From contig DATDQT010000083.1 of assembly GCA_035292085.1 (NCBI GenBank), positions 12,288-76,287 of the forward strand: 64,000 nucleotides of DNA, given 5' to 3'. The notes under the pieces are model-generated. The model ran no database searches and was not told the origin of the DNA. It was given only the letters and a program-made list of their open reading frames with translations. Of this stretch, positions 12,114 through 53,056 are shown piece by piece; the first letter of the stretch is position 1, and each line of letters begins with the position of its first letter. Source of the DNA: a bacterium. GTDB taxonomy: Bacteria; Sysuimicrobiota; Sysuimicrobiia; Sysuimicrobiales; Kaftiobacteriaceae. Position numbers and translations under genes: made by a program.

Positions 12114-12179
12114 ACCGGCTCCGTGGGGGTATTCGGTACGGGGGAGGACAGGCCTGCAGGCGGTGGAAATGGACACACG

Positions 12180-13325: not shown

Positions 13326-13340
13326 GATGTGGGGTTGAAG

Positions 13341-14135: not shown

Positions 14136-14148
14136 CGGGGTCCGGGAC

Positions 14149-15141: not shown

Positions 15142-15150
15142 AGCGACCAG

Positions 15151-17325: not shown

Positions 17326-18138
17326 ATGCGTACAGGTCCGCTCCAGGAAGGCGAACCCGTCTTACTGGTCGACCGCAAACAGCGCCGGTACCTGATCACG
17401 CTGCGGTCCGGCGCCGTCTCCGATCTCCGCGGCGGCAAACTGGGTCATGATGCGTTGATCGGGACCGACGAAGGGCGTCTGGTCGAGACCTCCCGCGGAG
17501 AGACCGTCCTGCTCCTGCGTCCGACCCTCGCCGAGTTCGTCCTGGAGATGCCCCGCGGCGCGCAGGTGATCTACCCGAAAGACCTCAGTGTGATCCTCAT
17601 CGCCGCCGACATCTATCCGGGTGCGCGGGTCCTGGAAGCGGGGACCGGGTCGGGGGCGCTGACGATGACGCTGGTACGCGCCGTTGGGCCCGCCGGCCGT
17701 GTGTTCAGTTACGAGGTCCGGCCCGAGTTCATGCGCATCGCGTCGGCCAACATCACCCGTTATCTGGGCCCGGCAGATGCCCTGATCCTGCGCGACCAGG
17801 ACGTGTACACGGCCATTCCCGACCAGCCGCTGGATCGCATCGTCTTGGACGTGCCTGAGCCGTGGCGCGCGGTGGAGCCCGCCGCGGCCGCGCTGCGCCC
17901 CGGGGGGATCCTCTTGACGTACTTACCGACGGTCCCCCAGGTCGCCCAGGCCGTCGAGACAATCCGTCGATCCGGCGCCTTCGCGATGATCGAGACCACC
18001 GAAACGTTGCTGCGTCCATGGAACATCGAGGGCGCGAGTGTGCGGCCCGCTCACCGCATGGTCGCGCACACCGCCTTTCTCACCACCGCACGGCGGATCA
18101 CCCCGCCTATGGCCGAAGCGGAACGATCCGGGGGATAA
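17326..18138 (+). CDS. trmI: tRNA (adenine-N1)-methyltransferase (TrmI/Gcd14 family)
   Basis: Trimmed to ATG 17326, excluding repeat-derived codons. Contains RGAQVIYPKDLSVILIAADIYPGARVLEAGTGSGALT, a SAM motif; 270 aa. Confidence 0.75.
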   Translation: MRTGPLQEGEPVLLVDRKQRRYLITLRSGAVSDLRGGKLGHDALIGTDEGRLVETSRGETVLLLRPTLAEFVLEMPRGAQVIYPKDLSVILIAADIYPGARVLEAGTGSGALTMTLVRAVGPAGRVFSYEVRPEFMRIASANITRYLGPADALILRDQDVYTAIPDQPLDRIVLDVPEPWRAVEPAAAALRPGGILLTYLPTVPQVAQAVETIRRSGAFAMIETTETLLRPWNIEGASVRPAHRMVAHTAFLTTARRITPPMAEAERSGG

Positions 18139-19906: not shown

Positions 19907-19923
19907 CCTGCAGGGCGGTGCGG

Positions 19924-21102: not shown

Positions 21103-21144
21103 TCTTAACCTCCATCTACCATCTCCAATCGTACTGCGCTGCCC

Positions 21145-21173
21145 TTGAACAGGGTAGGGGGACTTGCTAGAGT
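21145..21173 (+). promoter_or_regulatory. Putative sigma-70-type promoter of lysA (TTGAAC-17 nt-TAGAGT)
   Basis: TTGAAC at 21145-21150 and TAGAGT at 21168-21173. The lysA ATG at 21181 lies about 7 nt downstream of the -10 box, and no Shine-Dalgarno sequence is visible. Confidence 0.3.
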
Positions 21174-21180
21174 ACACGCG

Positions 21181-22509: not shown

Positions 22510-23122
22510 CCCGGCGATCCTGCCGTATCTGGCCGTGGCCCTGATCGTGGCGGCCACCGTGCACGAGTTCGCCCACGCCTACGTAGCGGACCGGTTGGGC
22601 GATCCGACGCCGCGGGGCATGGGCCGGCTCACCCTCAACCCCCTGGCGCACCTGGATCCCATCGGCTCGCTGATGATTCTGCTGGTCGGGTTCGGATGGG
22701 CCAAACCGGTGCAGATCAACCCGGCCAACTTTGCGGACTGGCGGCGCGATTCCATTCTCGTCGCGCTGGCGGGGCCGCTGGCCAACGTGACGCTGGTCTT
22801 TCTGCTCGGCCTGCCGTTCAAGCTCGAACTGGTCGACACAGGCAGCGGCGTCCTGTTCGGCCTGCTGGGGTGGGGACTGCAGATCAACGCCATGCTGGCG
22901 GTCTTCAATCTCATCCCCATCCCCCCGCTCGACGGCTCGAAGGTCCTCGTCGGCCTGCTCCCGGGCAATCTGGCCATCAGTTACGCGCGGGTGGAACGGT
23001 TCGGGTTTCTCATTCTGCTGGCCTTGATCTTCACCCGGGCCTTGCCGGCGATCGTCATTCCGCCGATGCGGTGGCTGATCGCGCAGGCGACGGGATCGTT
23101 CGGCATCGGGCTGTTCTTCTGA
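22496..23122 (+). CDS. Site-2 protease family (peptidase M50) membrane metalloprotease
   Basis: 208 aa. HEFAHA zinc motif sits in the first TM region, followed by LTLNPLAHLDPIGS and NLIPIPPLDGSKV. Confidence 0.75.
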   Translation: MLGLNPAILPYLAVALIVAATVHEFAHAYVADRLGDPTPRGMGRLTLNPLAHLDPIGSLMILLVGFGWAKPVQINPANFADWRRDSILVALAGPLANVTLVFLLGLPFKLELVDTGSGVLFGLLGWGLQINAMLAVFNLIPIPPLDGSKVLVGLLPGNLAISYARVERFGFLILLALIFTRALPAIVIPPMRWLIAQATGSFGIGLFF

Positions 23123-33151: not shown

Positions 33152-33580
33152 ATGTCGGAACAGAACAAAGCGATCGTCCGCCGGCTCTTCGAGGGAATCA
33201 GCCAGGGACATGACGCGGTCATTGAGGAGCTGGTGGCCCCGGATTTCGCCGCGAAGGAAGCGGGCGAGATGCGGATGATGGGGGCCGAAGGGTTCAGGGA
33301 AGTCGTGGCGACCTACCGGAGCGCATTTCCCGACATGCGGTTCACGATCGAGGACCTGATCGCCGAAGGCGACAAGGTGGTCGTGTGGTCGACATTTACC
33401 GGCACGCACCAGGGGCCGCTGGGAGAACTCCCTCCCACCGGGAAATCCGTGGCGGTGAAGGATGTCGACATGTACCGAGTGCGAGATGGGAAGGTCGTCG
33501 AAGGGTGGACGAATTTTGACCAGTGGGGCTTGATGAAGCAACTCGGCGTGGTTGGCGCCGAGGGCGGCGAAGAAGGTTAG
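33152..33580 (+). CDS. SnoaL-like ester/polyketide cyclase family protein
   Basis: ATG 33152 is preceded by GGAGGG. Contains NKAIVRRLFEGI...FPDMRFTIEDLIAEGDKVVVWSTFTGTHQGPLGELPPTGKSVAVKDVDMYRVRDGKVVEGW, typical of the ester cyclase family; 142 aa. Confidence 0.7.
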   Translation: MSEQNKAIVRRLFEGISQGHDAVIEELVAPDFAAKEAGEMRMMGAEGFREVVATYRSAFPDMRFTIEDLIAEGDKVVVWSTFTGTHQGPLGELPPTGKSVAVKDVDMYRVRDGKVVEGWTNFDQWGLMKQLGVVGAEGGEEG

Positions 33581-33599
33581 GCAAGTCGGAAGAGGCGAC

Positions 33600-34544
33600 A
33601 TGATTCGTCGGCGTGCGGTTGCGGCGGTTATCACCGCGCTGTTGGGGGTCCTCATCGGTCCGGTATCGGCGCAGGAGTCGCCGGACGCGGCGGCGACCTG
33701 CATCGGCAGATCGGGCCCGGTGACGGCGACGGTAGGCATTCACCGGTTGCCCGCGGCGGTCGAGATCGACCTCCTGCTCGTCAACCAGGGACCGGGGACG
33801 GTCCAGTTCGACCCGTCGAAGGCCGTGCTGCGGACCGCCGAGTCGACGGCGGCCCCGTGGTCGGCCGCGGAAACCAAGCGCGCGCATCGGGACTGGGGAG
33901 CCTACATTCTGGCGGGCGGGATATTTCCAATGCTGCTGCCGCTCCCGCTGATCGCGCAACTCAACTTCAACCGCTACGTCGACTCCCGCGCGTTCCGCGC
34001 CGCGGAGGTCCAGCCGGGGCAGACGGCGAGGGGATCGCTCTTCTTTCCCCTTCCGCCCGACCGCCAGACTCGGGCCGTCCTCGAACTCGGCGGACCGGTC
34101 CCGGCATCGGGAGGGTCACGGCCGCTGAAAATGTACTGCGGCCTCCCGCGGGATGAGTCCCCCGGCGCGCCGCAGGTTCCAACCCTGACGGTGTCTGTGG
34201 ACGCCACCGGGCGGTCCGGAGCCGCCGAAGTTCGGGTGGATACGGTCGAGTTCTCCGCGGACTACACGGCGGTTGAACTGTCGATCTCGAACCGCTCCGA
34301 GACGAGCGCGGAGATCTTCATGGCGATGGTCAATGCCTCGCTCCGCGACAGTGAAGGACTCGTCTACACGCAGCGGTCCATCCGCAGCCAATTCGTCGAT
34401 CGAATCCCGGCCAGATCGAGTGTCTTCGCGCGCCTGGTGTTCGCCGCGATGCCGCGAACGACCACGGCGGCCTCGCTCAGGATCCCTGGGGTGTGGTTCG
34501 GTCCGGAGAACTCTGTGGACGTGACCGTCGACCTGAAGTTTTAG
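33600..34544 (+). CDS. Hypothetical secreted protein (314 aa), possibly with a DUF4352-like beta-sandwich C-terminus
   Basis: Trimmed to ATG 33600. Signal-peptide-like MIRRRAVAAVITALLGVLIGPVSAQE. The C-terminal region (VELSISNRSETSAEIF...LRDSEGLVYTQ) loosely resembles DUF4352. No confident family. Confidence 0.45.
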   Translation: MIRRRAVAAVITALLGVLIGPVSAQESPDAAATCIGRSGPVTATVGIHRLPAAVEIDLLLVNQGPGTVQFDPSKAVLRTAESTAAPWSAAETKRAHRDWGAYILAGGIFPMLLPLPLIAQLNFNRYVDSRAFRAAEVQPGQTARGSLFFPLPPDRQTRAVLELGGPVPASGGSRPLKMYCGLPRDESPGAPQVPTLTVSVDATGRSGAAEVRVDTVEFSADYTAVELSISNRSETSAEIFMAMVNASLRDSEGLVYTQRSIRSQFVDRIPARSSVFARLVFAAMPRTTTAASLRIPGVWFGPENSVDVTVDLKF

Positions 34545-38772: not shown

Positions 38773-40245
38773 ATGGCTGACGAGCATGGCAGCAAGTGGG
38801 TTCAGGTTTCGGAGAATCGCTGGCGGCGCGTCTCGCGCCGCGAGTTTCTCAAACTTACGGCCGGGGCCGCGGCGGGCGCGGGCCTGGCGGCGGGCAGTTT
38901 TGGATCCCTCCTGACCTCGTTTGTCAAAGCGCAGCCGCGCGCGCTGCGCATCATGACGTGGGCGCACTTCGTCCCCTGGGCGTACCACCCCTGGTTCGAC
39001 AACTTCGCGAGGGAGTGGGGGCGGAGCAAGGGGATCGAGGTCACGATCGACCGCGTCAGTTTCGCCGACATCGTCCCGCGGGCGACGGCCGAAGTGGCGG
39101 CGCAACAGGGGCACGACATGTACTTCTTCATCTCTCCGCCTTCCCAGTTTGAGCAGCAGGTCCTCGACCTGGCGGATGTCAACGGCGACGCGGCGCGGCG
39201 CTACGGCCCGATCCTCCCGGTGGTGCGCGACAGTACCTACAACCCGCACACGCGGAAGTGGTTCGGGTTCTCCGACAACTGGGTTCCAGACCCGGGCGAC
39301 TATCTGAAGAGTGCCTGGTCTGCGGTTGGGTACACGCAGGGGCCGAAGACGTGGGAGGACCTGCTCACCGCCGGCCGGCGGATCAAGGAGAGGTTTCCCA
39401 ACATTCAGATCCCCATCGGCGTCGGGTACTCGCAAGACATCGACTCCAACATGGCGACGCGGGCGATACTCTGGTCGTTCGGCGCGTCCGTCCAGGACAA
39501 AGATTCAAACGTCGTGCTCAACTCTGAAGAGACAGTCAAGGCGGTGGAGTGGGGAGTCCGGCTCTTCCGCGAGGTGATGACACCGGCCGTGATGAGCTGG
39601 AACGCCGCCTCCAACAACCAGGCGCTGGAAGCGGGAGCCACCTCGTATATCCTCAACTCGATTTCCGCGTACCGGTCCGCGCAGTTCCGGCGGCTGCCGA
39701 TTGCCGCCGACATCAACTTCGTCCCCGCACTGAGGGGTCCAGTCCGCGCCCTGGCCGCCACGCACGTCATGGGCGTGTGGGTCATCTGGAGGTTCGGGCG
39801 TGCGCCAGATCTGGCGAAGGAGTTCCTACTCCACCTGACCGACAACGCGCGCGCGTCAACCCTGGGCAGCGAACTGTACAACTTCCCGGCCTACATGGGG
39901 GCTGCGGCCGAGAAATCCACTCCGGTGGCGCAGAAACCGGCCGAGGGGCTGAGATGGATCCAGAGCCAGGTGCGCAGAGACCGTTTCGGGTCACTCCCTC
40001 CGGACAAACTGAAAGTGTTGGCTGATTCCCTGAACTGGTCGGCCAACATCGGCTGGCCCGGGGTGGCCAACCCCGCCGAAGGCGAGATCTTCGACACCAG
40101 CGTCACCGCCGACATGTTCGGCAAGGCGGCGACGGGACAGTCAACACCGAAGCAGGCCGTCGAAGAGGCCAGCCGCCGTGCGAAGGACATTTACGCGAAG
40201 TGGCGGCGCGCCGGTCTCGTGGGGGGCGGCAGCAAGGATCGTTGA
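38773..40245 (+). CDS. ABC transporter extracellular solute-binding protein (family 1, carbohydrate-type) with Tat-like signal
   Basis: 490 aa. The N-terminus SRREFLKLTAGAAAGAGLAAG is Tat-like, and the gene is followed by ATPase and two permease genes. Confidence 0.75.
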   Translation: MADEHGSKWVQVSENRWRRVSRREFLKLTAGAAAGAGLAAGSFGSLLTSFVKAQPRALRIMTWAHFVPWAYHPWFDNFAREWGRSKGIEVTIDRVSFADIVPRATAEVAAQQGHDMYFFISPPSQFEQQVLDLADVNGDAARRYGPILPVVRDSTYNPHTRKWFGFSDNWVPDPGDYLKSAWSAVGYTQGPKTWEDLLTAGRRIKERFPNIQIPIGVGYSQDIDSNMATRAILWSFGASVQDKDSNVVLNSEETVKAVEWGVRLFREVMTPAVMSWNAASNNQALEAGATSYILNSISAYRSAQFRRLPIAADINFVPALRGPVRALAATHVMGVWVIWRFGRAPDLAKEFLLHLTDNARASTLGSELYNFPAYMGAAAEKSTPVAQKPAEGLRWIQSQVRRDRFGSLPPDKLKVLADSLNWSANIGWPGVANPAEGEIFDTSVTADMFGKAATGQSTPKQAVEEASRRAKDIYAKWRRAGLVGGGSKDR

Positions 40246-43808: not shown

Positions 43809-44933
43809 ATGGCAACAGTGAAGACGACACCGCGGAAGATTCCGATTGCCCGGCCTGTGATCTCGGAGAGTGAGAAACGCCGGGTCATGGCCGTGCTCGA
43901 CTCGGGCATGCTCGTAGCCGGGGTCCAGGTGAAGGCGTTCGAGGCGGCATTTGCCGCGTACCTTGGGATCGGACATGCCGTGGCCACGTCGTCCGGCACG
44001 ACGGCGCTCCAGGTGGCGTTGGAGGCCCTGCGCATCGGGCAAGGAGACCGCGTCGTGACGACGCCGTTTACGTTTGTGGCGACCAGCAACGCCATTCTCC
44101 ACGCCGGGGCCGCGCCGGTGTTCGTGGACGTGGACCCGGTCACGTACAGCCTCGACGCCGACGCCGTGGAACGGGCAGGACGGGATGGCGCCAGGGCGGT
44201 CCTATGCGTGCACCTCTATGGGATGCCGTGCCGGATGGACCCGCTGGTGGACATCTGCCGCCGGTACGGGATGCTGCTGATCGAAGACTGCGCGCAGGCC
44301 CACGGCGCGCGATACCGCGGCCGGATGGTGGGGACATTCGGCGACGCCGCGATTTTCAGTTTCTACCCGTCCAAGAACATGACAACCGGGGAGGGCGGGA
44401 TGGTCGTGACCGGCGAGGCCGACGCTGCCGACCGGGCCCGGCTGCTGGTCAATGTCGGGCAAGATGGCGCCGGCGAGTATCGCTACGAGACGATCGGCTA
44501 TAACTACCGGATGACCGACATCGCGGCCGCGCTGGGACTGGGGCAGCTCGAACGGCTCGACGACATGAACGCCGTGCGGTGGGCGCACGCGCGCCAGCTC
44601 ACCGAGCGCTTCAACGGCCTCGAGTGGCTGACCCCGCCGGCAGAGCCCGAGGGCCATCTCCCCGTCTACAACCAGTACACGGTTCGTGTGACCGACGGTC
44701 GCGACGCGCTGGCGCGCCGCCTGACCGTGGCCGGCATCGGACACCGAGTGTACTATCCTTCGCTGATTCCGGATTCGCCCGCCTACCGGCGCCTGGGCTT
44801 CGGGGGAGAGTTCCCCACGGCCGGCCGGCTGACGCAGGAGGTCCTGTCCCTGCCGGTGCATCCCGCGCTGGAACACGGCGATCTGGCGCGCATCGTGGAG
44901 GCCGTCACTGGGTTCACTCCGGGCCATTCCTAG
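43809..44933 (+). CDS. DegT/DnrJ/EryC1/StrS-family PLP-dependent sugar aminotransferase
   Basis: 374 aa. Contains TSSGTTALQVAL, DCAQAHGA and FSFYPSKNMTTGEGGMV, which carries the PLP Lys. Confidence 0.85.
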   Translation: MATVKTTPRKIPIARPVISESEKRRVMAVLDSGMLVAGVQVKAFEAAFAAYLGIGHAVATSSGTTALQVALEALRIGQGDRVVTTPFTFVATSNAILHAGAAPVFVDVDPVTYSLDADAVERAGRDGARAVLCVHLYGMPCRMDPLVDICRRYGMLLIEDCAQAHGARYRGRMVGTFGDAAIFSFYPSKNMTTGEGGMVVTGEADAADRARLLVNVGQDGAGEYRYETIGYNYRMTDIAAALGLGQLERLDDMNAVRWAHARQLTERFNGLEWLTPPAEPEGHLPVYNQYTVRVTDGRDALARRLTVAGIGHRVYYPSLIPDSPAYRRLGFGGEFPTAGRLTQEVLSLPVHPALEHGDLARIVEAVTGFTPGHS

Positions 44934-44949
44934 CGGCGAAGCGCAGCGC

Positions 44950-45882
44950 GTGCAGCAGACGACCCGGCTCGGTGTCGTGGGGCTTGGCCAGTGGGGGCGT
45001 CACCATGCCCGTATCTATGCGGGCCTCCCAGGAGTGACGCTGGTGGCGGTGGCCGACCGCGACGGGGCGGGGGCCCGCTCGTTCGCGCACCGCTACGGGT
45101 GCCAGGCGCTCACGGACTACCGCGATCTGATTGGTCGGGTCGACGCGGTCAGCGTCGTGGTGCCGACGGGGTTGCACTACCAGGTCGCCCGGGATTTTCT
45201 CGCCGCCGGCGTCCACGTCCTCATCGAGAAACCGATGACGTCCACCCCGGACCAGGCGGCCGACCTCGTGGCGCGCGCCGAGCAGCACGGTTTGGTCCTC
45301 CTGGTCGGCCACGTGGAGCGCTTCAAGCCGGCCGTCAGGCAGCTCGCACAGCTGGCGCCTGAGCCCGTGTTCATCCAGGCGCGCCGGGTGCGCCCGTTCG
45401 ACCGGACCCGGGCCATGGACGTGGGCGTCGTCATGGACCTCATGATTCACGACATCGACATCATCCTGGGCGTGACCGGGGGCCGCGTGACGGAAGTCAG
45501 CGGGATGGGCCTGCGCATGCACAACTCCCACGAAGACCTCGCCGTCGCCCATCTGCAGCTGTCGACGGGCTGCGCCGCCTGGCTCCTGGCCAGCCGCATC
45601 TCTGCCGAGAAGGCGGCGGAGATCGAGATCACGACCGCGGACTCGGCGATCCGCCTCGACTACCTCCGCCAGCACACCGTGGTCCAGCCGTTCGGCGGGG
45701 AAGCACGGCGCATCGCCACCCACGCCGAAGAACCCCTCAAGGCCGAACTGCAGCATTTTGTGGACTGCGTGCAAGGACGCGACCAGCCGCTCGTCTCAGG
45801 CGCGGACGGCCTGCGTGCGCTGGAAGTGGCGCACCGGTTGTTGACGACGATGGCGGTGGTCGCTCCGCCAGTGCGGGTGTAG
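44950..45882 (+). CDS. Gfo/Idh/MocA-family NAD(P)-dependent oxidoreductase
   Basis: 310 aa. The N-terminus LGVVGLGQWGRHHARIY and the EKPM motif (VLIEKPMT) fit. It is paired with the DegT aminotransferase, as in amino-sugar pathways. Confidence 0.8.
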   Translation: MQQTTRLGVVGLGQWGRHHARIYAGLPGVTLVAVADRDGAGARSFAHRYGCQALTDYRDLIGRVDAVSVVVPTGLHYQVARDFLAAGVHVLIEKPMTSTPDQAADLVARAEQHGLVLLVGHVERFKPAVRQLAQLAPEPVFIQARRVRPFDRTRAMDVGVVMDLMIHDIDIILGVTGGRVTEVSGMGLRMHNSHEDLAVAHLQLSTGCAAWLLASRISAEKAAEIEITTADSAIRLDYLRQHTVVQPFGGEARRIATHAEEPLKAELQHFVDCVQGRDQPLVSGADGLRALEVAHRLLTTMAVVAPPVRV

Positions 45883-45903
45883 TTGCGAACCGTGAGCTGT
45901 GCG

Positions 45904-46152
45904 TTAGGGTTTTACGATGACGCAGGTCGCGACTTCGACCACTCCGTCGATCCTGCGCACGGCGGCCGTGAGGCTGGGAAAGCCCCGGGTTCCCTCGAGC
46001 TCGGCGATCGCGACGACATCATAGTCGCCCATGGTCACGTGGGCATCGACCACGCCGTCCAGCTGCCGGATCGCCCGCGCCACCGCGGCCGGAGTGCTGC
46101 GGTTGATCGAGACCAGTACGTATGCCACCTCGGTCACGCCCCCAACTTTCAA
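45904..46152 (-). CDS. Lrp/AsnC ligand-binding-domain-only small protein
   Basis: 82 aa. AYVLVSIN...GVVDAHVTMGDYDVVAIAE...IDGVVEVATCVIV matches the AsnC_trans_reg (RAM) domain pattern. The start (TTG 46152 or a downstream GTG) is uncertain. Confidence 0.6.
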   Translation of the reverse strand: MKVGGVTEVAYVLVSINRSTPAAVARAIRQLDGVVDAHVTMGDYDVVAIAELEGTRGFPSLTAAVRRIDGVVEVATCVIVKP

Positions 46153-46206
46153 CTTCCAGTTGGGTCTGTCCTGTTGCAGTTACCCACCACCTAGCGCTGG
46201 GGTGGA

Positions 46207-46236
46207 TTGACAGCCGGCGCGGGCGGGCTTTACCCT
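46207..46236 (+). promoter_or_regulatory. Putative promoter of the FMN-riboswitch/ribU transcript (TTGACA-18 nt-TACCCT)
   Basis: Consensus -35 TTGACA at 46207-46212 and TAnnnT-type -10 TACCCT at 46231-46236, about 25 nt upstream of riboswitch stem P1. Confidence 0.35.
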
Positions 46237-46259
46237 TACGAGGAGCACTACCGAAGCCC

Positions 46260-46474
46260 GCAGCGCTCTGGGGCAGGGTGAGTCCTAACCGCGGTTAGGG
46301 CAATTCCCGATCGGCGGTGACAGCCCGTGACGGCTGCCAGGCGGCGGCCGGTGGCCCGGTGAAATTCCGGGGTCGACGGTAAGCCCCGTTCCAAGTCGGC
46401 AGGTACGTTGTGCAGTTTCGGAGCATGTGGCAGCCGACTTGGAACGGGGTAAGTCCGTATGAGGTGAACGCTGC
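46260..46474 (+). promoter_or_regulatory. FMN riboswitch (RFN element) aptamer with two atypical hairpin insertions
   Basis: P1 is GCAGCG(46260-65)/CGCUGC(46469-74). Core strands: GGGGCAGGGUGA..AAUUCCCGAUCGGCGGUGACAGCCCGUGAC..CCGGUGAAAUUCCGGGGUCGACGGUAAG..UAAGUCCGUAUGAGGUGAAC. These match the remembered B. subtilis ribD RFN consensus (GGGGCAGGGUGAAAUUCCCGACCGGCGGU...AGCCCGUGAC...GCCGACAGUGAAAGUCUGGAUGGGAGAAG). A RibU-like gene follows. Confidence 0.75.
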
Positions 46475-46501
46475 GAGATGCCGGCGCCCCAGCGCCCCGA
46501 G

Positions 46502-46531
46502 GACGCCCGACGTTGGGCGTCTTTTGCTTTT
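46502..46531 (+). terminator. Intrinsic terminator of the FMN riboswitch expression platform
   Basis: GACGCCC (46502-08) pairs with GGGCGTC (46515-21), followed by TTTTGCTTTT, upstream of the ribU RBS AGGAGGGG. Confidence 0.7.
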
Positions 46532-46565
46532 GGGCGACCGGAGGTCGTGCGTAGGAGGGGTATTC

Positions 46566-47090
46566 ATGAAGACCCGAGATCTTACCGTCACCGCGCTGCT
46601 CATCGCGTTGACCACCGTCGCCACGATGGTGGTGCGCATCCCCGTGCCGGCGACTCAGGGCTATATCAACCTGGGGGACTCACTGGTTTACATCGCCGCG
46701 CTGTTGTTCGGCCCACTCACAGGCCTCATCGCCGGAGGGGTGGGATCGGCGCTCGCGGACCTGCTCGGCGGCTACACGCAGTTCGCACCATATACCCTCG
46801 TGATCAAGGGTCTGGAAGGGCTGTTGGTGGGTCTGGTCGCATGGCGGCTGACACGGGGACCGACGGCAACGGCCGGTGGAGTGGCCGCCGCGGTCCTGGC
46901 CATCCTCATCGGCGGCGCGGTCATGGTCGGAGGCTACTTCGTGGCGGAAGCGTTCATCATGGGGTTAGGCACCTCGGCGGCCGGCGCTGAAGTCCCGGGA
47001 AACATCTTCCAGGTCGCGGGCGGGCTGGTGGTCGCCATCCCCGCGGCGCTCCTGCTCCGCGGTCTCGTCCCGTCCCGGCGCGCGCCGTAG
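46566..47090 (+). CDS. ribU: ECF-transporter S component, riboflavin transporter RibU-like
   Basis: Trimmed from ORF 46410..47090 to ATG 46566. 174 aa, six hydrophobic segments, LTVTALLIALTTVATMVVRIPVP...GYINLGDSLVYIAALLFGP. The assignment is supported by the upstream FMN riboswitch. Confidence 0.7.
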   Translation: MKTRDLTVTALLIALTTVATMVVRIPVPATQGYINLGDSLVYIAALLFGPLTGLIAGGVGSALADLLGGYTQFAPYTLVIKGLEGLLVGLVAWRLTRGPTATAGGVAAAVLAILIGGAVMVGGYFVAEAFIMGLGTSAAGAEVPGNIFQVAGGLVVAIPAALLLRGLVPSRRAP

Positions 47091-48104
47091 GTGGCCGTGC
47101 TCCGCACCGGCAAGGTGCCGCCGGATCTTCTCCGCGCGCTGATCTTTCCGTACCTGGGACGGCGGGCCGATGTCCTCGTTCATGCAGGCATCGGACAAGA
47201 CAGCGCGGTCCTCGACTTCGGCGAGTGGGCCGCGGTCTTGACCTGCGATCCGATTACCGCAGCCCGGCGTCACCTGGGCCGGCTGGCCGTTCACGTCACC
47301 TGCAACGATCTCGTGACCACCGGCGCAGAACCGGTGGGCCTGCTCCTGACGCTGCTGCTGAGGGAAGACACGCCCGACGGTGAACTGGCCGCCATCATGC
47401 GCGAGGCCGGCGAGACCGCCCTCGCGCTGGGTGTCGAGATCATCGGGGGGCACACGGAAGTGACGCCTGGGATCGACCGCACGATCGCCATGGTAGCCGG
47501 CATCGGCCGCGTACGCAAAGCCGACCTCATCACGCCCCGCGGCGCGAGGGCCGGGGATGCTGTCCTCATCACAAAAGGGGTCGCGGTGGAAGGCACGGCC
47601 ATCCTCGCCGACGACCTGGCCGGCGTCCTGCGCGGGCGCGTCGACGGCGCAGTCCTCGACCGCGCCCGGACACTGATCGACCGGATCAGCGTGGTCCCCG
47701 ACGGCTTGATCGCATCACGCAACGGCGCCACCGCCATGCACGACATCACGGAGGGCGGAGTCCTCGCCGGTGCGTGGGAACTGGCTGAGGCGGCTGGCGC
47801 CGGCATCGAGATCTGGGCGGACCGCATCCCGGTATTCCCGGAAACCTCGGCGATCTGCGCGGTGCTCGACGTCAACCCGCTGGCCCTCATCGGCAGCGGG
47901 GCCATGCTGGTCGCCACGCGCACCCCGCGGCGGACCGTGGAAGCGCTGGAAGGCAACGGTATCCCCGCCGCCCACATCGGGATGCTCACCGAGGCCGCAC
48001 GTTCCATCCATACGCCCGCGGGCGTCCGGGAGCTTGTGCCGCCGGACCGCGATGAACTCTGGCGAATTCTCGAATTGACACAATCGACTCAACGTACGCA
48101 ATAA
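47091..48104 (+). CDS. AIR-synthase-related (PurM/HypE/ThiL-fold) protein of unknown specificity
   Basis: 337 aa. GTG 47091 directly follows the ribU stop. GIGQDSAVLDFGEWAAVLTCDPIT and EIIGGHTEVTPG are typical of the PurM-like N and C domains. Confidence 0.65.
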   Translation: MAVLRTGKVPPDLLRALIFPYLGRRADVLVHAGIGQDSAVLDFGEWAAVLTCDPITAARRHLGRLAVHVTCNDLVTTGAEPVGLLLTLLLREDTPDGELAAIMREAGETALALGVEIIGGHTEVTPGIDRTIAMVAGIGRVRKADLITPRGARAGDAVLITKGVAVEGTAILADDLAGVLRGRVDGAVLDRARTLIDRISVVPDGLIASRNGATAMHDITEGGVLAGAWELAEAAGAGIEIWADRIPVFPETSAICAVLDVNPLALIGSGAMLVATRTPRRTVEALEGNGIPAAHIGMLTEAARSIHTPAGVRELVPPDRDELWRILELTQSTQRTQ

Positions 48105-48177
48105 CTTGCTTCGGCCCGACAGAGGAGCGGCAGGTCATCGAGTCGATTGTGTGCCTGGTGTCAATCGTGTACATTGA

Positions 48178-48276
48178 TAGGTAGAGGGGAGCTCGGGCCA
48201 CCGGGCTGAGAGTGCACCTTATCGCGGTGCAGACCCTTACGACCCGATCCAGGTAATGCTGGCGTGGGGACATCGG
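48178..48276 (+). promoter_or_regulatory. TPP (THI-box) riboswitch
   Basis: GGGGAGCUCGGGCCACCGGGCUGAGAGUGCACC...GCAGACCCUUACGACCCGAUCCAGGUAAUGCUGGCGUGGGGA carries the conserved CUGAGA, ACCC and GAUC-AGG-UAAUGC-GGCG blocks. A GC-rich hairpin at about 48291-48316 plus UUCAUCAUU follows. The thiT-thiN genes lie downstream. Confidence 0.8.
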
Positions 48277-48335
48277 ATACGCAGCGAGGCGCCGCACCCC
48301 GGATTCGGGTGGCGGCGTTCATCATTGGTGGTGAG

Positions 48336-48605
48336 ATGGATACCCGTCTCGTTGAGGTCAAAGCGGAGCGCCTGCTGTGCCATCTCTGAGCGGCGCGCGT
48401 CCAGGCGGCCTTGGAGAGGCTGCCGGGGGTAACACGCGCCCGTGTCGATTTCGCGACCAAGACCGCGGTGGTCGAGGGGGATGCCCGAATCACCCCGGAG
48501 GTCGTACGCCGCCGCATCGACGGCCTCGACACGCGGTTGACGGCGCGACACTGGCTGCACCGGGTGTGGTCCAGAATACGTGACCCGAGGGGGGACAGGC
48601 GATGA
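48336..48605 (+). CDS. Candidate selenoprotein or pseudogene: HMA (heavy-metal-associated) domain protein with an in-frame TGA at the second Cys of CxxC
   Basis: ATG 48336, after GGTGGTGAG, gives MDTRLVEVKAERLLCHL-TGA(48387)-AARVQAALERLPGVTRARVDFATKTAVVEGDARITPEVVRRRIDGL..., which fits the HMA pattern C-x-x-C-x-x-x-V-x-x-x-L-x-x-x-x-GV-x-x-x-x-V. The SECIS-like hairpin is at 48392-48440, and the stop overlaps the thiT ATG. Confidence 0.4.
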
Positions 48606-49123
48606 GTAGACACACGCTGCAGCGACTGGTGGAGACCGCCGTGGCGCTCGCGCTGGTGGCCGTGCTCAGCCGCATCAAGGTGTACCAGCTCCCGCAGGGC
48701 GGCTCGATCACCGCGGGAAGCATGGTGCCGGTATTCTATGTGGCCCTGCGCTGGGGCGGGTGGTGGGGAATCCTCACCGGCGTCCTGGCCGGGGTGCTCA
48801 ACTACGTGAGCGAGCCCTTTTTCGTGCATCCAATCCAGGTCCTCCTCGACTATCCGGTCGCCTTCGGCGCGCTGGGGGTGGCGGGATTCTTCCAGCGGGC
48901 GCCGATCGTGGGAATCATCCTGGGCGGTGCCGGGCGGTTCGTTGCCCACTTCCTCTCCGGAGTGGTGTACTTTGCCTCATTTGCGCCCGAAGGCGTGTCC
49001 CCCATGGTGTACTCGGCGGCGTACAACGGCAGCTACATGTTGCCTGAGGTGATCGTCAGTATCGTGCTGACACTGGTCGTGCTGCGGGCCATGCAGCGGG
49101 TCAGGCCGGTTCCGGCCGCGTGA
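48602..49123 (+). CDS. thiT: Energy-coupling-factor thiamine transporter S component ThiT
   Basis: 173 aa. Contains LPQGGSITAGSMVPVFYVALRWGGWWG...LDYPVAFGALG, downstream of the TPP riboswitch and upstream of thiamine pyrophosphokinase. Confidence 0.75.
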   Translation: MSRHTLQRLVETAVALALVAVLSRIKVYQLPQGGSITAGSMVPVFYVALRWGGWWGILTGVLAGVLNYVSEPFFVHPIQVLLDYPVAFGALGVAGFFQRAPIVGIILGGAGRFVAHFLSGVVYFASFAPEGVSPMVYSAAYNGSYMLPEVIVSIVLTLVVLRAMQRVRPVPAA

Positions 49124-49761
49124 AGTCCGCGGTCATTATTGCCAACGGCAGGTTTCGTCCGTCTGCCGGTCTGCGTGAGGTAGTCGCGGCCGCCGACGTG
49201 GTGATCTGCGCCGACGGCGGGCTGCGCCATGCCCGGACGCTTGGCCGCGCGCCGCACATCGTGGTGGGGGATTTCGATTCCGTTCCCCCGCGCCTGCTGG
49301 CCTGGGCCGAGCGGCGCGGGGCGGAGTTACGGCAGCATCCCACGGCCAAGGACAAAACGGACACCGAGCTCGCGCTCGATGCCGCCGTCGCCTGGGGCGC
49401 CCGGCTCGTCGACTTCCTCGCCGTCATGGGCGGCCGCCCGGATCACGCGCTGGCGAACCTGTTCCTGCTGGTCGCCGCCCGGCGGCACGGCGTGCGCTCG
49501 CGCATCCATGATGGCCGCCGTCTGCTGTTTCTGGTAGAGTCCGAGGAAGTGGTGCCCGGCACTCGAGGCGATACCCTGTCCTTCCTGGCGCTGTCAGACG
49601 CCGCGGAGGGTATCACGACAGCAGGACTCCGCTATCCGCTCGCCGGCGGCAGGCTGGCCGTGGGGTCTTCCCTGGGCATCAGCAACGTGATCGAGTCGGT
49701 ACCGGCCAGGGTGACCGTGAAGCGCGGTGTGCTCCTGGCGATGTTGAGTCGGCGAGGGTAG
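49120..49761 (+). CDS. thiN: Thiamine pyrophosphokinase
   Basis: 213 aa. Contains ADGGLRHARTLGRAPHIVVGDFDS and KDKTDTELALD motifs. Overlaps the thiT stop. Confidence 0.8.
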   Translation: MKSAVIIANGRFRPSAGLREVVAAADVVICADGGLRHARTLGRAPHIVVGDFDSVPPRLLAWAERRGAELRQHPTAKDKTDTELALDAAVAWGARLVDFLAVMGGRPDHALANLFLLVAARRHGVRSRIHDGRRLLFLVESEEVVPGTRGDTLSFLALSDAAEGITTAGLRYPLAGGRLAVGSSLGISNVIESVPARVTVKRGVLLAMLSRRG

Positions 49762-49765
49762 GACT

Positions 49766-50647
49766 GTGAGCGACTATCTGGTGCGTACGATCAGCGAAGA
49801 CGGCACGGTCCGGGCGCTGGCCGCGGTCACGACCTCGACCGTCGAGCGGGCGCGGCGCCGGCATGGCACGGCGCCGACGGCCACCGCAGCGCTGGGCCGG
49901 ACGCTGACCGCCGCGGGCCTGTTGGGCGCCACGTTAAGGGACGGCCAGACCGTCATGGTGCGCGTGCTGGGGGATGGGCCGCTGGGCGGCGTCCTCGCGA
50001 GCGGCGATGGGGCAGGGGCGGTGCGAGGGTATGTCGCCAACCCGGAGGTCCACCTGCCGCCCACGCCCGCGGGGAAACTCGACGTGGGAGGTGCCGTGGG
50101 GAGGGGAACCCTGCATGTGACGATGGACCTGGGACTGCGCGTGCCCTACCACGGCAGCGTGCCCCTGGTGTCAGGGGAGATCGGCGAGGACCTGGCGTCC
50201 TATCTGGTGACGTCCCATCAGATTCCGTCAGTCGTGGCGCTGGGCGTGCTAGTCTCACGGGAGGAGCGCGTGCTCGCCGCCGGCGGGTTGCTCGTGCAGC
50301 TCTTGCCTGGAGCCGACGACGCCGTGGTCCAGCGTCTTGAGGAACGGGCCCGCGTGCTTCCCACGATCACGTCGATGATCAGCCACGGGCGCACGCCAGA
50401 GGACATCGTCGCCGAAGCCCTCGGCGACCTTCCCATCCGGATCGTCGACCGCAAGATCGTGCGCTTCCGCTGCCGCTGTTCCATCGCGCGGGTGCGCGGC
50501 ATGCTGTCACTGCTGGGCGCCGAGGAACTGCGGGAGATCGTGAGCGAGCAGGGGCGGGTGGAAGTTCAGTGCAATTTCTGCGCGCGCCGGTACGTGCTGA
50601 ACGCAGTTCAGGTAGAAGACTTAATTGCGCGGAAGACGATTCAATAA
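49766..50647 (+). CDS. hslO: Hsp33-family redox-regulated chaperone
   Basis: 293 aa with the C-terminal zinc centre CRCS...CNFCARRY and the N-terminus DYLVRTISEDGTVRALAAVTT. Confidence 0.8.
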   Translation: MSDYLVRTISEDGTVRALAAVTTSTVERARRRHGTAPTATAALGRTLTAAGLLGATLRDGQTVMVRVLGDGPLGGVLASGDGAGAVRGYVANPEVHLPPTPAGKLDVGGAVGRGTLHVTMDLGLRVPYHGSVPLVSGEIGEDLASYLVTSHQIPSVVALGVLVSREERVLAAGGLLVQLLPGADDAVVQRLEERARVLPTITSMISHGRTPEDIVAEALGDLPIRIVDRKIVRFRCRCSIARVRGMLSLLGAEELREIVSEQGRVEVQCNFCARRYVLNAVQVEDLIARKTIQ

Positions 50648-50661
50648 CGGTTTCCGGTACG

Positions 50662-50853
50662 TCAGCTCGCTCTCGCCAGCCGGCCCGATCTCAGGCAGGT
50701 CGTGCAGACCAGCAACCGCCGTCGTGTTCCCCCGACGACCCCGTGGACCCGCTGCAGGTTGGGCATAAACCGGCGCTTGGTTTTCACCTTGGAATGGCTG
50801 ATCGAATGTCCGCTTGCCGGACGCTTGCCGCAGATGTCACAGACCCTGGCCAT
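50662..50853 (-). CDS. rpmB: 50S ribosomal protein L28
   Basis: Trimmed from ORF 50662..51078 to ATG 50853, preceded by GGAGG. Sequence [34 protein letters not shown]; 63 aa. Confidence 0.85.
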
Positions 50854-50932
50854 CGTTTGACCTCCACCACCGGTGAAGTGTAACACACACGGCAGGCAAG
50901 GGAAAGCCGACCCGCGTAGAACATTAGCGGCG

Positions 50933-53056
50933 ATGGCCACGACGCGCCGCAGCGCTGTCCCTCCGACGACCCCTCCGCGGACGGCACGTGACCTCCCGCC
51001 GGCAGACGTTCCCGCCCAGTTCGTGAAGGGTGTGGGGCCTGTCCGGGCGGCCCAGCTCGCCCGCCTTGGGGTGCACACGGTCGACGATCTGCTGCATCAC
51101 AAACCCGCGCGCTACGAAGACCGCAGCCACATCGCGGCCATCGGATCGCTGGTTCCCGGCATGCGCCAGACCACACAGGGCACGGTGGTCGCCGTCAGCG
51201 AGCGGCGGCACGGGACCTACCAGTTCCAGGCGGCGCTGCGCGACGACACCGGTGTCCTGCAGGCGACCTGGTTCGGCCAGCGGTATCTGCGCAAACTGAT
51301 CCGCCGCGGCACCCGCCTGATCGTCTACGGCAAAGTCGACCGGTTCGGCGGTTTCCAGATGGTGGTTGATGACTTCGAGATCCTCAGCGGCGATGAGGAA
51401 GATACCCTGCACACCGGCCGGGTTGTGCCGGTTCACCCCGCGACGGAAGGACTCACACCGCGGGCGCTGCGGACCGTGATCGCCCAGGCCCTCGAGACCT
51501 ATGCGGATGCGGAGCCGGACGTGCTCCCGGACCCGCTGCGCCGGCGGTTTGGATTCGCCGGCATCGCCGAGGCAGTGAGAGCGCTGCACTTCCCCTCCAC
51601 CCTGGCCGATGCCGACCACGCCCGTCGCCGCCTGGCGTTCGAAGAGTTCTTCGTCCTGCAGGCCGGTCTGTTGCAGCGCAAGCACGCTCTCGACACGATC
51701 GACAAAGGCGTCCGCTACCAGAAGGCCGACGCCCTCATCCAGCGGCTGGTGGCGACACTGCCGTATGCGCTGACCGGCGCGCAACGGCGCGTGATCGCCG
51801 ACATCGCGCGCGACCTGCAGCGCAGCCAGCCGATGAACCGGCTCCTCCAGGGAGACGTCGGATCCGGCAAGACCGTCGTCGCGGCGACCGCCTTGTGGCT
51901 TGCCATCGGCAACCGGCTACAGGGCGCGCTGATGGCGCCGACGGAGATCCTCGCCGAGCAGCACTATCTCACCCTCCGCCGGCTGCTGGCCCCTCTGCGG
52001 GTGAAGGTCGCGCTGGTGACCGGTGGCGGCCGGAAGCGCGAGCGGGAGTCTGTGCGTCGTGATATCGTCTCCGGGGCCGCCGACCTCGTCGTCGGTACGC
52101 ACGCACTGCTGGAGGGAGGGGTCGCGTTCAAGCGGTTGGGACTTCTCGTGGTGGATGAGCAGCACAAGTTCGGCGTGATGCAGCGCGCGGCGCTGCGGCG
52201 GAAGGGGTTCCACCCCGACGTGTTGATCATGACGGCAACCCCGATCCCGCGCACTCTATCGATGACCCTCTACGGCGACCTGGACGTGTCGGTGCTGGAC
52301 GAGATGCCCCCGGGCCGCGGGATTGTCAAGACGTACGTGCGCGCGCCGGAGAAGCGTCCGGACGTCTACGCCTGGGTGCGCGAGCAGGTCCGCGCCGGCC
52401 GGCAGGCCTATGTCGTGTGCCCCCTGATCGAAGGGTCCGAAAAGCTGCAGGCGGAGGCCGCCGTGGCTCTCGCCGCACGGCTCCGGCATGAGGTCTTCGC
52501 GGGGATCCGTCTGGCCCTGCTGCACGGCCGGATGCCCACGGATGAGAAGGAGGCCACGATGGAGCAGTTCCGGCGTGGGGTCGTCCAGGTGCTCGTGGCG
52601 ACCTCGGTCATCGAGGTCGGCATCGACGTGCCGGCTGCGACCATCATGGTCGTGGAAGATGCCGACCGGTTTGGTCTGGCGCAGCTCCACCAACTGCGCG
52701 GACGGATCGGCCGCGGGGCGGAAACCTCGTTCTGCATCCTGCTCACCTCGCCGCGGACGGACGCGGCCCGGGAGCGAATGGACGTCATGGCCCAGACGAA
52801 AGACGGGTTCATCATCGCGCAGCGGGACCTTGAACTGCGGGGCCCCGGCGAAATCTTCGGGACCAGACAGCACGGCCTGCCGGACCTGCGGATTGCCGAT
52901 CCCGTCGCCGACCTACCGCTGCTCGAGGCCGCCCGGCAGGAAGCCCGGATGGTCGTCGAGCGGGATCCGCGGCTGGACGATCCAGCCCACCGTGCGCTGC
53001 GCCACGCCGTGCAGGCCCGGTTCCTCAAGCCCGGTGAAGCGGCGGCGGTCGGCTGA
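50933..53056 (+). CDS. recG: ATP-dependent DNA helicase RecG
   Basis: Start ATG 50933 (GTG 50873 is also possible). Contains [14 protein letters not shown], helicase motif [19 protein letters not shown] (VVDEQHKFG) and [12 protein letters not shown]; 707 aa. Confidence 0.85.

Follow-up and report, generated by a model that had tools for sequence, protein, structure and literature searches.

The window, i.e. the whole stretch of 64,000 nucleotides that was analysed, contains on its forward strand an operon that is headed by a TPP riboswitch and includes the thiamine genes thiT and thiN. A small frame with an internal TGA codon lies between the riboswitch and thiT. The features of the locus are as follows.

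48175..48287 (+), TPP riboswitch aptamer at the operon head (Rfam RF00059, 61.6 bits; gathering threshold 54.3)
48289..48318 (+), GC-rich hairpin directly 3' of the aptamer, candidate expression platform (stem-loop fold; near-invariant in the alignment)
48336..48605 (+), proposed full selenoprotein ORF of 89 codons including Sec, with a predicted HMA-fold domain and, at the C-terminus, a basic tail
48378..48380 (+), TGC, encoding the Cys of C-x-x-U, without change in all 13 lineages
48387..48389 (+), in-frame TGA, proposed selenocysteine codon, in one alignment column throughout the 13 lineages and at the second CxxC Cys of solved HMA domains
48404..48424 (+), core SECIS-like hairpin with an 8-bp stem (48404-11 / 48417-24) and the loop UGGAG (48412-16)
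48546..48560 (+), R-H-W-L-H tail motif (…D·RL··RHW·H…), family-specific in the alignments
48602..49123 (+), thiT, ECF thiamine S-component (Pfam Thia_YuaJ 1e-48; TIGR02357 135.8 bits, above the cut-off)
49120..49761 (+), thiN, thiamine diphosphokinase (TIGR01378 158.5 bits, above the cut-off)

An earlier note on this DNA had described one continuous 89-codon frame with a lone in-frame TGA. The frame was re-derived from the window sequence with the same result: on the plus strand it runs from ATG 48336 to the stop at 48603-48605 and is interrupted only by the TGA at 48387-48389. The conceptual translation on the two sides of this codon is MDTRLVEVKAERLLCHL*AARVQAALERLPGV... When a cysteine was put at the TGA, residues 8-62 matched the Pfam HMA family PF00403 with 49.9 bits (E=4.3e-13; profile positions 2-57 of 62), where the gathering threshold is 24.8 bits, and the proposed HMA identity was borne out. 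HMA chains of the PDB matched with E ~1e-13, the nearest solved chains being 2rml and 1p6t, HMA domains of CopA from B. subtilis. Their GMTCAAC aligns with ERLLCHL-U, and the TGA coincides with the second of the two Cu-binding Cys in CxxC, where the earlier note had placed it. No transmembrane or hydrophobic segment was found in the window protein. The AlphaFold model of the fragment that follows the TGA had a low confidence (pLDDT 62.6) and contained beta-2, beta-3 and a single long helix.

The conservation of the TGA was examined in the relatives for which DNA was fetched. In all 13 distinct lineages, with protein identities of 40-80%, the TGA is found at the same column and within the motif (A/V)DR(I/L/M)(L/W)-C-x-(L/I)-TGA-A-x-RV. 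The metal loop of the family reads D-R-(I/L)-L-C-x-(L/I)-U, so that Cys and the proposed Sec occupy both places of the metal ligands; the G-M-T/S context of the canonical G-M-x-C-x-x-C loop was missing in 13 of 13 lineages. The RHWLH-type tail motif sets the family apart from ordinary HMA proteins and is missing in the generic HMA matches (P0100-P0105). The in-frame ATG and the N-terminal peptide are kept in the relatives, and decay of the gene, which would have spoken for a pseudogene, was not seen: there are no further stops or frameshifts, and pN/pS was 0.17-0.30 upstream of the TGA and 0.20-0.26 downstream. In the 12 codons before the TGA, pS was 0.69 and pN 0.11, and in the remainder of the gene pS was ~0.5 and pN ~0.1. 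Because the part upstream of the TGA is under purifying selection, the N-terminal 17-26 codons must be translated in the TGA frame. Elsewhere in the window, TGA ends about half of the genes as an ordinary stop and therefore has not been globally reassigned.

The family comprises ~38 database clusters with full-length products of 79-96 aa. Every member is called as a fragment of 51-73 aa that follows the TGA, and the public databases label these fragments "CopZ" or "HMA domain". The carriers are uncultured bacteria with a Bacillota-like gene order. A full-length CxxC form was not found within the ~38 clusters and 13 lineages, and the only near relative with a Cys is P0050, a distant protein of the CxxxC form. 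The same column is occupied by TGC or TGT in 12 ordinary HMA genes, which were taken as controls and do not have the hairpin described below. A Sec/Cys pair, for which the earlier note had suggested a search, is accordingly seen in the alignments at the level of the superfamily; because the family has no Cys orthologue, its Cys side is provided by HMA proteins of the wider superfamily and by P0050. Selenoprotein families that lack a Cys orthologue are atypical (PMC12013277). A metagenome scan returned two more copies of the window sequence together with unrelated HMA domains, and the latter were reused as negative controls. Among the GTDB species, a single carrier MAG of the same lineage as L001 was obtained in a scan that did not sample the wider family, as one of its two patterns demanded a Cys codon at the Sec position.

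The SECIS-like hairpin begins 14 nt past the TGA. The upper stem 48404-10 / 48418-24 and the position of the loop GG, 26-27 nt from the U of UGA, were both reproduced from the earlier description. The 7-nt loop UUGGAGA given there was correctly located and is better read as a 5-nt loop UGGAG, with U48411 and A48417 forming a pair that lengthens the upper stem. The base stem 48392-97 / 48435-40 was confirmed for the window, and the four closest relatives retain it in part; across the family as a whole it is not conserved. The 60-nt fold had a free energy of -33.8 kcal/mol (z = -2.3 against shuffles). Together with the TGA, the hairpin was retained in all 13 lineages in an identical register, with the loop U-G-G-A-R and an MFE of -9.5 to -19 kcal/mol. 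Pairing was observed in 94.2% of the cells, compared with 42-59% in slid controls. The covariation score was 0.45 against 0.06-0.13 for slid registers, and 0 of 500 shuffles attained it. Compensatory changes were present in 4 of the 8 pairs, one of them at the synonymous third position of an Ala codon, which changes along with a second-codon position; this signal is drawn from about three clades and so includes few independent compensatory events. Across the hairpin pS falls to 0.25, i.e. the synonymous rate is halved.

For bacterial SECIS elements, the published rules are a loop of 3-9 nt that has a G in its first two nucleotides, a stem of 4-16 bp, a distance of 16-37 nt from the UGA and an MFE of at most -7.5 kcal/mol (PMC13188914). 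With its 5-nt UGGAR loop, 8-bp stem, 22-nt spacing and the MFE range given above, the hairpin agrees with all four rules, and the SECIS-like geometry ascribed to it holds for an element that also covaries. The loop U-G-G-A-R further fits the published N1-G-[G|U]-N-N2 (PMC13188914). With the consensus bacterial SECIS (bSECISearch model; PMC13188914 Fig. 2) it shares the 5-nt loop with a G at position 2 followed by another G, N1 and N2 that are able to pair, the 8-bp upper stem and the 22 nt between UGA and loop. It differs from the consensus in that no lower stem or bulge is conserved past the core of the window hairpin. No Rfam SECIS match was obtained in 48280-48620, either at the gathering score or in a permissive search; this negative carries no information, because the bacterial SECIS models of Rfam are lineage-specific.

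The gene always adjoins an ECF S-component, ThiT or ThiW, and two gene orders were observed. In the window clade, the order is riboswitch, Sec gene, thiT and thiN. In the second, the Sec gene stands between thiW and thiM, within thiXYZ-tenA-thiW-...-thiE-thiL-thiD. TPP riboswitches above the gathering score also occur at the equivalent site in L001, L002, L004, L008 and L009, and the long operons of L028 and L032 are headed by one. The hairpin at 48289-48318 is followed by a T-rich run in the relatives and by CATCATT in the window, where a strict terminator scan of the riboswitch platform returned no terminator. The gene is co-directional with its neighbours, tightly spaced and located downstream of the riboswitch, as is characteristic of a member of the THI (TPP-riboswitch) regulon.

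Translational coupling to thiT had been proposed from the ATGA in which the thiT ATG overlaps the stop of the proposed selenoprotein gene. This overlap exists in the window; it is missing in the four closest relatives, where a gap of 18-23 nt and a separate SD sequence precede thiT. Elsewhere in the family, overlap with the downstream gene is common, and start/stop overlaps were seen with thiW, thiM or thiT. At the thiW-linked loci (5 of 5), the Sec gene has an ATG or GTG that shares bases with the stop of thiW (NTGA), and the TGA follows 21-26 codons downstream in the same frame. The thiamine operon had also been called an unexpected home for such a domain. The location is real and turned out to be constant throughout the family, and as judged from the loci compared here it is a defining conserved property of the whole family.

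Genes for the Sec machinery were searched for in the same regions. Neither selA, selB, selD nor tRNA-Sec was found in the window or in the ~10 kb that flank the loci of the relatives on each side. Pfam analysis of the 20 largest window genes revealed no SelA, no SelB and no true SelD, and ARAGORN detected only a tRNA-Pro in the window and no tRNA in the relatives' loci that were scanned. The neighbouring AIRS protein (47091-48104) was tried as a SelD candidate and rejected, as it scored below the cut-off for SelD, HypE and ThiL alike. In a search of the window for a second gene with an in-frame TGA, only a shadow-frame match at 39407(-) was obtained with a filter so strict that it missed the HMA TGA too.

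The earlier reading of the TGA as a Sec codon is supported by the conservation of the codon, the selection pattern, the covariation of the hairpin and the HMA alignment. From this comparative evidence we infer that selenocysteine is inserted, and window 48336-48605 is very probably a genuine, unannotated selenoprotein gene. The family to which it belongs was so far unrecognised, with a predicted Sec codon in all members examined. According to this model, the ribosomes would initiate at ATG 48336 and the UGA at 48387 would be decoded as selenocysteine, directed by the SelB-type SECIS hairpin at 48404-48424. The product would be an 89-aa cytosolic HMA-fold protein with a C-x-x-U metal/redox motif and a basic, His-containing RHWLH tail.

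Four other explanations were weighed against the decoding of the TGA as selenocysteine. In the first, the TGA is a true stop that terminates a leader peptide of 17-26 aa, the C-terminal two thirds are made from an internal GTG, TTG or ATG, and the hairpin serves termination-reinitiation, pausing or mRNA stability. The gene callers do place internal starts 1-7 codons past the TGA in every lineage, and in the window clade the gene is part of a riboswitch leader, a place in which a small regulatory ORF would be plausible; the failure to find Sec machinery in the window and the ~10 kb flanks also fits a stop. However, the upstream peptide corresponds exactly to beta-1 and the first HMA Cys and is contiguous in frame with the rest, and a domain deprived of beta-1 and the metal loop would fail to adopt the HMA fold. 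The internal starts vary among ATG, GTG and TTG and lie 1, 2, 3 or 7 codons past the TGA, the loop sequence and spacing of the hairpin fit SelB-type SECIS rules, and the thiW-type operons hold the gene internally, outside any leader. We therefore regard a true stop as unlikely.

Stop-codon read-through that is stimulated by a downstream structure is an established phenomenon. In the second explanation, the TGA is read by a near-cognate tRNA (Trp or Cys) with the help of the hairpin, and a full-length protein without selenium results. The conservation pattern demands a full-length product, which such a read-through would deliver, and it would need none of the Sec genes that were missing from the regions searched. 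Yet TGC/TGT or TGG is only one mutation away and was used in 0 of 13 lineages and in 0 of the ~38 clusters. The TGA stands at the classic position of a Sec, that of a redox or metal Cys, and the loop motif and spacing are those of SelB-dependent SECIS elements. Read-through of this kind has in our opinion very little probability.

The third explanation concerns the hairpin, which could be a by-product of coding for the HMA helix (A-L-E-x-L-P-G-V) and have no function as RNA. Indeed, the UGGAR loop is a Leu-Glu codon pair and the arms lie within conserved codons. In the 12 ordinary HMA genes, which encode the same helix, only 1.8 of 8 pairs form in this register, whereas 7.5 of 8 form in the family. 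A synonymous change from GCC to GCU goes together with a change at the second codon position with which it pairs, UUG/AGG is replaced by CUG/GAG or CUG/GGG, and the lowered synonymous rate across the hairpin likewise speaks against a coding effect, which makes it highly improbable. Finally, a recent TGC/TGT-to-TGA pseudogene, which the earlier note had offered as the alternative to Sec, or a sequencing or assembly error would require one base change only and would suit a public annotation that has just the fragment, but both were rejected with near certainty, as the same TGA occurs in 13 divergent lineages with pS 0.5-0.7 among the closest five, purifying selection acts on both sides of a gene free of additional stops and frameshifts, and the identical TGA in three independent assemblies (the window and two other metagenome assemblies) excludes an assembly error.

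If the TGA is decoded as selenocysteine, the question of function arises. The gene is under the TPP riboswitch and, because it is a fixed member of TPP-riboswitch-controlled operons, its expression would be expected at low TPP. The selenolate/thiolate pair may act on, or carry something for, an imported thiazole-containing vitamin. The most likely forms, as a conjecture, would be a thiol/selenol oxidoreductase that acts on thiamine or thiazole whose ring has opened to a thiol or disulfide, or a soft-metal-binding partner of the S-component. As one possibility, a selenol/thiol reductase would turn such ring-opened forms back into usable vitamin; as another, the protein would be a carrier or metal partner that is based on selenolate and located where the transporter faces the cytosol. 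That the family is obligately Sec, with no Cys version anywhere, and dedicated to thiamine/thiazole salvage with ThiT or ThiW is proposed tentatively, as a possibility somewhat short of probable.

Bacterial selenoproteins are systematically mis-annotated, and here a family of ~38 clusters appears to have been hidden as short fragments. By their own admission, the selenoprotein finders of today miss families that have no Cys counterpart (PMC12013277). The thiamine-salvage location in two operon architectures suggests that a step or partner in the uptake of vitamin B1 or thiazole has gone unrecognised, and that this uptake depends on selenium. If a Sec family is dedicated to thiamine salvage, selenium and vitamin B1 metabolism would be functionally linked for the first time, and these soil bacteria would have a hidden need of selenium when they scavenge B1.

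The family was then compared with known systems. No description of it was found in the literature on selenoproteins with HMA, ThiW, thiamine or TPP riboswitch, nor in the reviews of 2022 and 2026, BSepDB, deep-Sep and the SAO preprint, and none of the NCBIfam selenoprotein models covers it. HMA-type selenoproteins with precedent are a UxxC ATPase, a UxxU metal-binding protein and a MerT/CopZ fusion. The UxxU_metal_bind family NF041115 (formerly 'putative mercuric reductase') resembles the window protein as a small stand-alone HMA-like protein with Sec in the metal loop. It has two Sec (UxxU) instead of CxxU and neither the RHW-H tail nor the thiamine context, and the window protein and a relative scored 28.8 and 30.0 bits against its cut-off of 95. 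The MerT/CopZ fusion-like heavy-metal transport selenoprotein NF045683 also has an HMA/CopZ-like domain with Sec. It is a membrane fusion of 235 aa, unlike the window protein with its lack of a TM segment, and the scores of 26.4-27.2 bits lie far below the cut-off of 375.

The best sequence matches were obtained with CopZ and the N-terminal HMA domains of CopA (2rml, 1p6t, 1cpz; PF00403), which align over the whole domain with CxxC on C-x-x-U. In the family, D-R-(I/L)-L-C-x-L-U stands in place of their G-M-T/S-C-x-x-C loop, and the basic tail …RVD·RL··RHW·H… in place of their C-terminal G-Y/beta-4 region. The window protein stayed under the cut-off of each CopZ/MerP model of NCBIfam. The CopZ models (NF047957, NF033794/5, TIGR00003) gave at best 42.4 bits against a cut-off of 85, and TIGR00003 gave 18 against 62. 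The operons of the family are thiamine salvage operons and not cop or mer operons, and no copA or csoR was present among the neighbours.

The cation-transporting P-type ATPase (E1-E2) selenoprotein has a UxxC in its N-terminal HMA domain, e.g. ABB15669.1 (PMC13188914, PMC9312934). As proposed for the window protein, Sec takes the place of a Cys of the HMA CxxC, and a bacterial SECIS lies inside the coding region. The Sec is the first residue of the motif in the ATPase (UxxC) and would be the second in the window protein (CxxU). The ATPase domain is part of a large membrane pump, occurs in metal-efflux contexts and has many Cys homologues, whereas the proteins of the family lack a Cys orthologue, are free-standing with 79-96 aa and are encoded in thiamine operons.

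The candidate selenoprotein gene (the Sec gene) translates as MDTRLVEVKAERLLCHL, the in-frame TGA and AARVQAALERLPGVTRARVDFATKTAVVEGD..., so the single 89-codon frame from ATG 48336 with a lone TGA that the earlier note had described was confirmed. The features of its locus are as follows.

Sec gene locus in the window
48175-48287, TPP riboswitch
48289-48318, + strand, GC-rich hairpin directly 3' of the TPP aptamer, conserved in 5/5 close loci
48336-48605, + strand, Sec gene: ATG, 16 codons, TGA (48387-48389), 71 codons, stop
48602-49123, thiT, with its ATG overlapping the Sec gene stop
49120-49761, thiN

When a Cys was placed at the TGA, the 89-aa product matched the Pfam HMA domain (PF00403; 49.9 bits, E=4.3e-13, residues 8-62). 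Among solved structures it was most closely related to both HMA domains of CopA from B. subtilis (E about 1e-13; 2rml, 1p6t). There, the copper-binding GMTCAAC aligned with ERLLCHL-[TGA] and the TGA took the position of the second ligand Cys, in agreement with the earlier reading of the CxxC motif. The riboswitch, thiT and thiN were likewise found where they had been reported, and the descriptive claims on the window locus were all correct. The full-length family products are basic, have 79-96 aa and no hydrophobic segment, and each contains exactly one Cys and one Sec. A structural model of the post-TGA fragment was of low confidence (pLDDT 63).

A search of 5.8 billion proteins returned only five relatives, each called as a fragment of 59-71 aa that covers the post-TGA part only. 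Their contigs were syntenic, with an ECF S-component, an AIRS-family gene, the riboswitch, the HMA fragment, thiT, thiN and hslO. When the DNA was aligned, the TGA stood at the identical column in 5/5 distinct close lineages, an in-frame ATG was present 15-17 codons 5' of it in all five, and all kept the N-terminal peptide …R(R)IEV·A(D/E)RLLC(E/H)L-TGA, whose Leu codons differed at third positions. About 40 nt 3' of the TGA were almost invariant. Substitutions were then counted by segment.

Nei-Gojobori-type counts by segment around the TGA
12 codons before the TGA: pS 0.69, pN 0.11
16 codons after the TGA: pS 0.25, pN 0.065
remainder of the Sec gene: pS 0.47-0.50, pN 0.10-0.12

The low pN relative to pS before the TGA shows that the upstream peptide is under purifying selection in the Sec gene frame, and the region after the TGA carries an extra constraint on synonymous sites. 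A recent TGC/TGT-to-TGA pseudogene, which had been raised as the alternative, was excluded by this selection and by the TGA common to the relatives. An assembly error was also excluded, since the window sequence with the identical TGA occurs in two other metagenome assemblies (Ga0209520, Ga0209108) and the gene of the close-relative type L001 also has the TGA in a GTDB soil MAG (DASYRL01, SMAG_U4510).

The fragment profile was run with HMMER against 1.84 billion representatives and detected further short proteins, which match the profile from their own residue 1-2 and have in common a distinctive tail, …RVD·RL··RHW·H…. In a second search, by word index, a 12-sequence profile gave about 38 clusters with this tail, all called at 51-73 aa and several labelled "copper chaperone CopZ" or "heavy-metal-associated domain-containing protein"; NCBI annotates family members as HMA-domain fragments of 66-67 aa. 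Eight more distinct lineages were examined as DNA (loci L024-L032). The motif (A/V)DR(I/L/M)(L/W)-C-x-(L/I)-TGA-A-x-RV was present in all eight and hence in 13/13 lineages overall. One subgroup (L029 5019-5300; P0091, P0093, P0095, P0099) has RHAIRHRLL in place of the tail RL··RHW·H and HxxxH in place of the His pair HxxH, a hint that having two His on the same face of a helix matters.

The Sec/Cys pair proposed as a check was found at the level of the HMA superfamily: 12 ordinary HMA genes from a metagenome scan had TGC/TGT at the Sec column, but the family clusters had no CxxC form. An intact N-terminus with CxxC was seen only in P0100-P0105, which are generic CopZ/ATPase domains that lack the tail. 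P0050 (106 aa), the sole candidate for a relative with Cys, has the loop VCDRVC (CxxxC), 38% identity to the window protein over 72 aa and a divergent tail (RRLLHRL). This absence of Cys orthologues is unusual and places the family in the class of selenoproteins that is stated to be missed by homology-based finders (PMC12013277).

The SECIS-like hairpin of the earlier note folds in the window (-33.8 kcal/mol over 60 nt, z = -2.3), but its lower stem is kept only among close relatives. The hairpin region has no indels, and therefore 13 sequences could be aligned in register (alignment A6, TGA at columns 7-9). When folded alone, all of these TGA-carrying sequences formed one common core of a 7-9 bp stem with a U-G-G-A-R cap, and RNAalifold recovered the same helix. 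In the helix columns 24-31 / 37-44, 94.2% of the cells were standard pairs, compared to 42-59% when the 3' arm was slid by 1-3 columns. The covariation score was 0.452 against 0.06-0.125 for the slid arms and 0.19 for shuffled alignments, and was reached by 0/500 shuffles. Changes on both sides were observed in 4/8 pairs (CG/GC, CG/UA twice, GC/UG), stemming from roughly three clades and thus from few independent events. In one covarying pair, the synonymous third base of an Ala codon (GCC/GCU) is tied to the second base of a codon that varies between Arg, Glu and Gly; in another, UUG/CUG (Leu) is tied to AGG/GAG/GGG. Protein constraint alone is an insufficient explanation for this. For a negative control, the 12 ordinary HMA genes, which encode the same helix, formed 1.8/8 pairs in the hairpin register, whereas the family formed 7.5/8; the mean MFE was -8.0 and -15.0 kcal/mol, respectively.

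Bacterial SECIS elements have a 3-9 nt apical loop that has a G within its initial two positions, typically N1-G-[G|U]-N-N2 with N1/N2 pairing, an upper stem of 4-16 bp, a UGA-loop distance of 16-37 nt and an MFE <=-7.5 kcal/mol (PMC13188914). The family hairpin, with a UGGAR loop closed by U·G or U-A, an 8-bp stem, 22 nt spacing and an MFE of -9.5 to -19 kcal/mol, agrees with all four rules and bears out the SECIS geometry noted before. An Rfam search gave no SECIS family matching the window hairpin region.

About half of the ordinary window genes terminate in TGA, which is therefore used as a normal stop by this organism; the Sec gene's in-frame TGA is a local, signal-dependent event and not the mark of a recoded genome. 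No Sec-decoding machinery was seen across the window or in the about 10 kb on either side of each locus. Taken together, the conservation of the TGA, the selection and the SECIS-type hairpin support the selenoprotein interpretation, and the UGA very probably encodes Sec.

At 39407 (-), the TGA scan also picked up an in-frame TGA whose two sides both have high GC3; it lies in a shadow frame, antisense to the gene for the solute-binding protein (38773-40245), and was therefore rejected as an artefact rather than a second selenoprotein candidate. Elsewhere in the window, the 488-aa N-terminal extension of a thiolase ORF has no Pfam match and overlaps an ORF for a CitMHS/TrkA_C transporter on the same strand (19924-22557 (-) and 18107-20245 (-)); the most probable reading is that the ORF is over-extended in high-GC DNA, not a fusion. 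A 330-aa ORF at 33552-34544 (+) has a good coding signal (GC3 0.83) and no Pfam match at E<=1e-5. The cluster 11661-16752 (+) encodes an acyl-CoA dehydrogenase with an extra N-terminal region of roughly 175 aa, the ORF 13329-14135, ETF-alpha and the methylmalonyl-CoA mutase large subunit; it is an ordinary catabolic context unrelated to the Sec gene.

In the window clade the operon runs TPP riboswitch, Sec gene, thiT, thiN. In all other lineages it runs TPP riboswitch, thiZ/X/Y-type ABC transporter, (M20 amidohydrolase), tenA, thiW, Sec gene, thiM, thiE, AIRS (thiL-like), thiD. Both types lie in the same neighbourhood, with degT-gfo on one side and hslO, rpmB (minus strand), recG, rsmD, coaD, yceD, rpmF and the fab genes on the other (regions compared: window 43809-53056, L028 2786-17020, L032 1427-13177 and L029), which indicates that the thiamine module was exchanged in evolution while the Sec gene was kept. 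In 5/5 thiW-preceded loci the thiW stop codon shares bases with an ATG or GTG (NTGA) whose frame reaches the internal TGA 21-26 codons later; the Sec gene stop overlaps the next gene's start in 8/12 loci. The 48289-48318 hairpin is followed by a T-rich run in the relatives (GTTTGTGTT) and by CATCATT in the window, where a strict terminator scan of the riboswitch platform found no canonical terminator.

Directly 5' of the TPP riboswitch, an ECF S-component gene (46410-47090, +; TIGR04002/riboflavin-like, below cut-offs) abuts the AIRS-family gene (47091-48104, +). The pair lies at L001 1722-3241, L002 1968-3496 and L004 8166-9709 in relatives, and thiW-type loci have an AIRS paralogue in the same position without the S-component (L028 4852-5880, L032 3553-4554). 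The window AIRS protein scored below cut-off for HypE (100 bits), ThiL (94) and SelD (72) and was not accepted as SelD.

The Sec gene always adjoins an ECF S-component, ThiT (thiamine) or ThiW (thiazole). This constant adjacency is strong guilt-by-association for a role in the salvage of the thiazole-containing vitamin; confidence in any particular biochemical role is low. Plausibly, a Cys-Sec redox couple could reduce ring-opened thiol or disulphide forms of thiamine/thiazole. It is also plausible that the protein holds a soft-metal site, possibly completed by the conserved His pair of its tail (HxxH, or HxxxH in the L029 subgroup), or that it is a cytosolic partner docking on the S-component via its basic amphipathic tail.

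HMA metal-binding loops with Sec are already known from the cation-transporting ATPase with UxxC, the metal-binding (seleno)protein NF041115 with UxxU and the MerT/CopZ fusion selenoprotein NF045683 (PMC13188914, PMC9312934, NCBIfam). No description of the Sec gene family was found in the literature, recent reviews, BSepDB, deep-Sep or the SAO preprint, and the protein scored far below the cut-offs of these known selenoproteins and of every CopZ/MerP NCBIfam model.

Scores of the Sec protein against NCBIfam models
NF047957 (best CopZ model): 42.4 bits, cut-off 85
NF041115: 28.8-30.0 bits, cut-off 95
NF045683: 26.4-27.2 bits, cut-off 375

In conclusion, the Sec gene represents a predicted new bacterial selenoprotein family with an HMA fold, a C-x-x-U motif and a canonical-type SECIS; it is specific to TPP-riboswitch thiamine salvage operons and hidden in databases as truncated fragments. 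The recoding mechanism is standard, and the functional context is unexpected and testable. The protein has CxxU where the ATPase has UxxC and NF041115 has UxxU, and its loop is DR(I/L)LC·LU in place of the GMTCxxC of known HMA proteins. A family-specific tail sets it apart from the known HMA selenoproteins and from CopZ/MerP, and its thiamine operon contrasts with the metal resistance context of the known systems.
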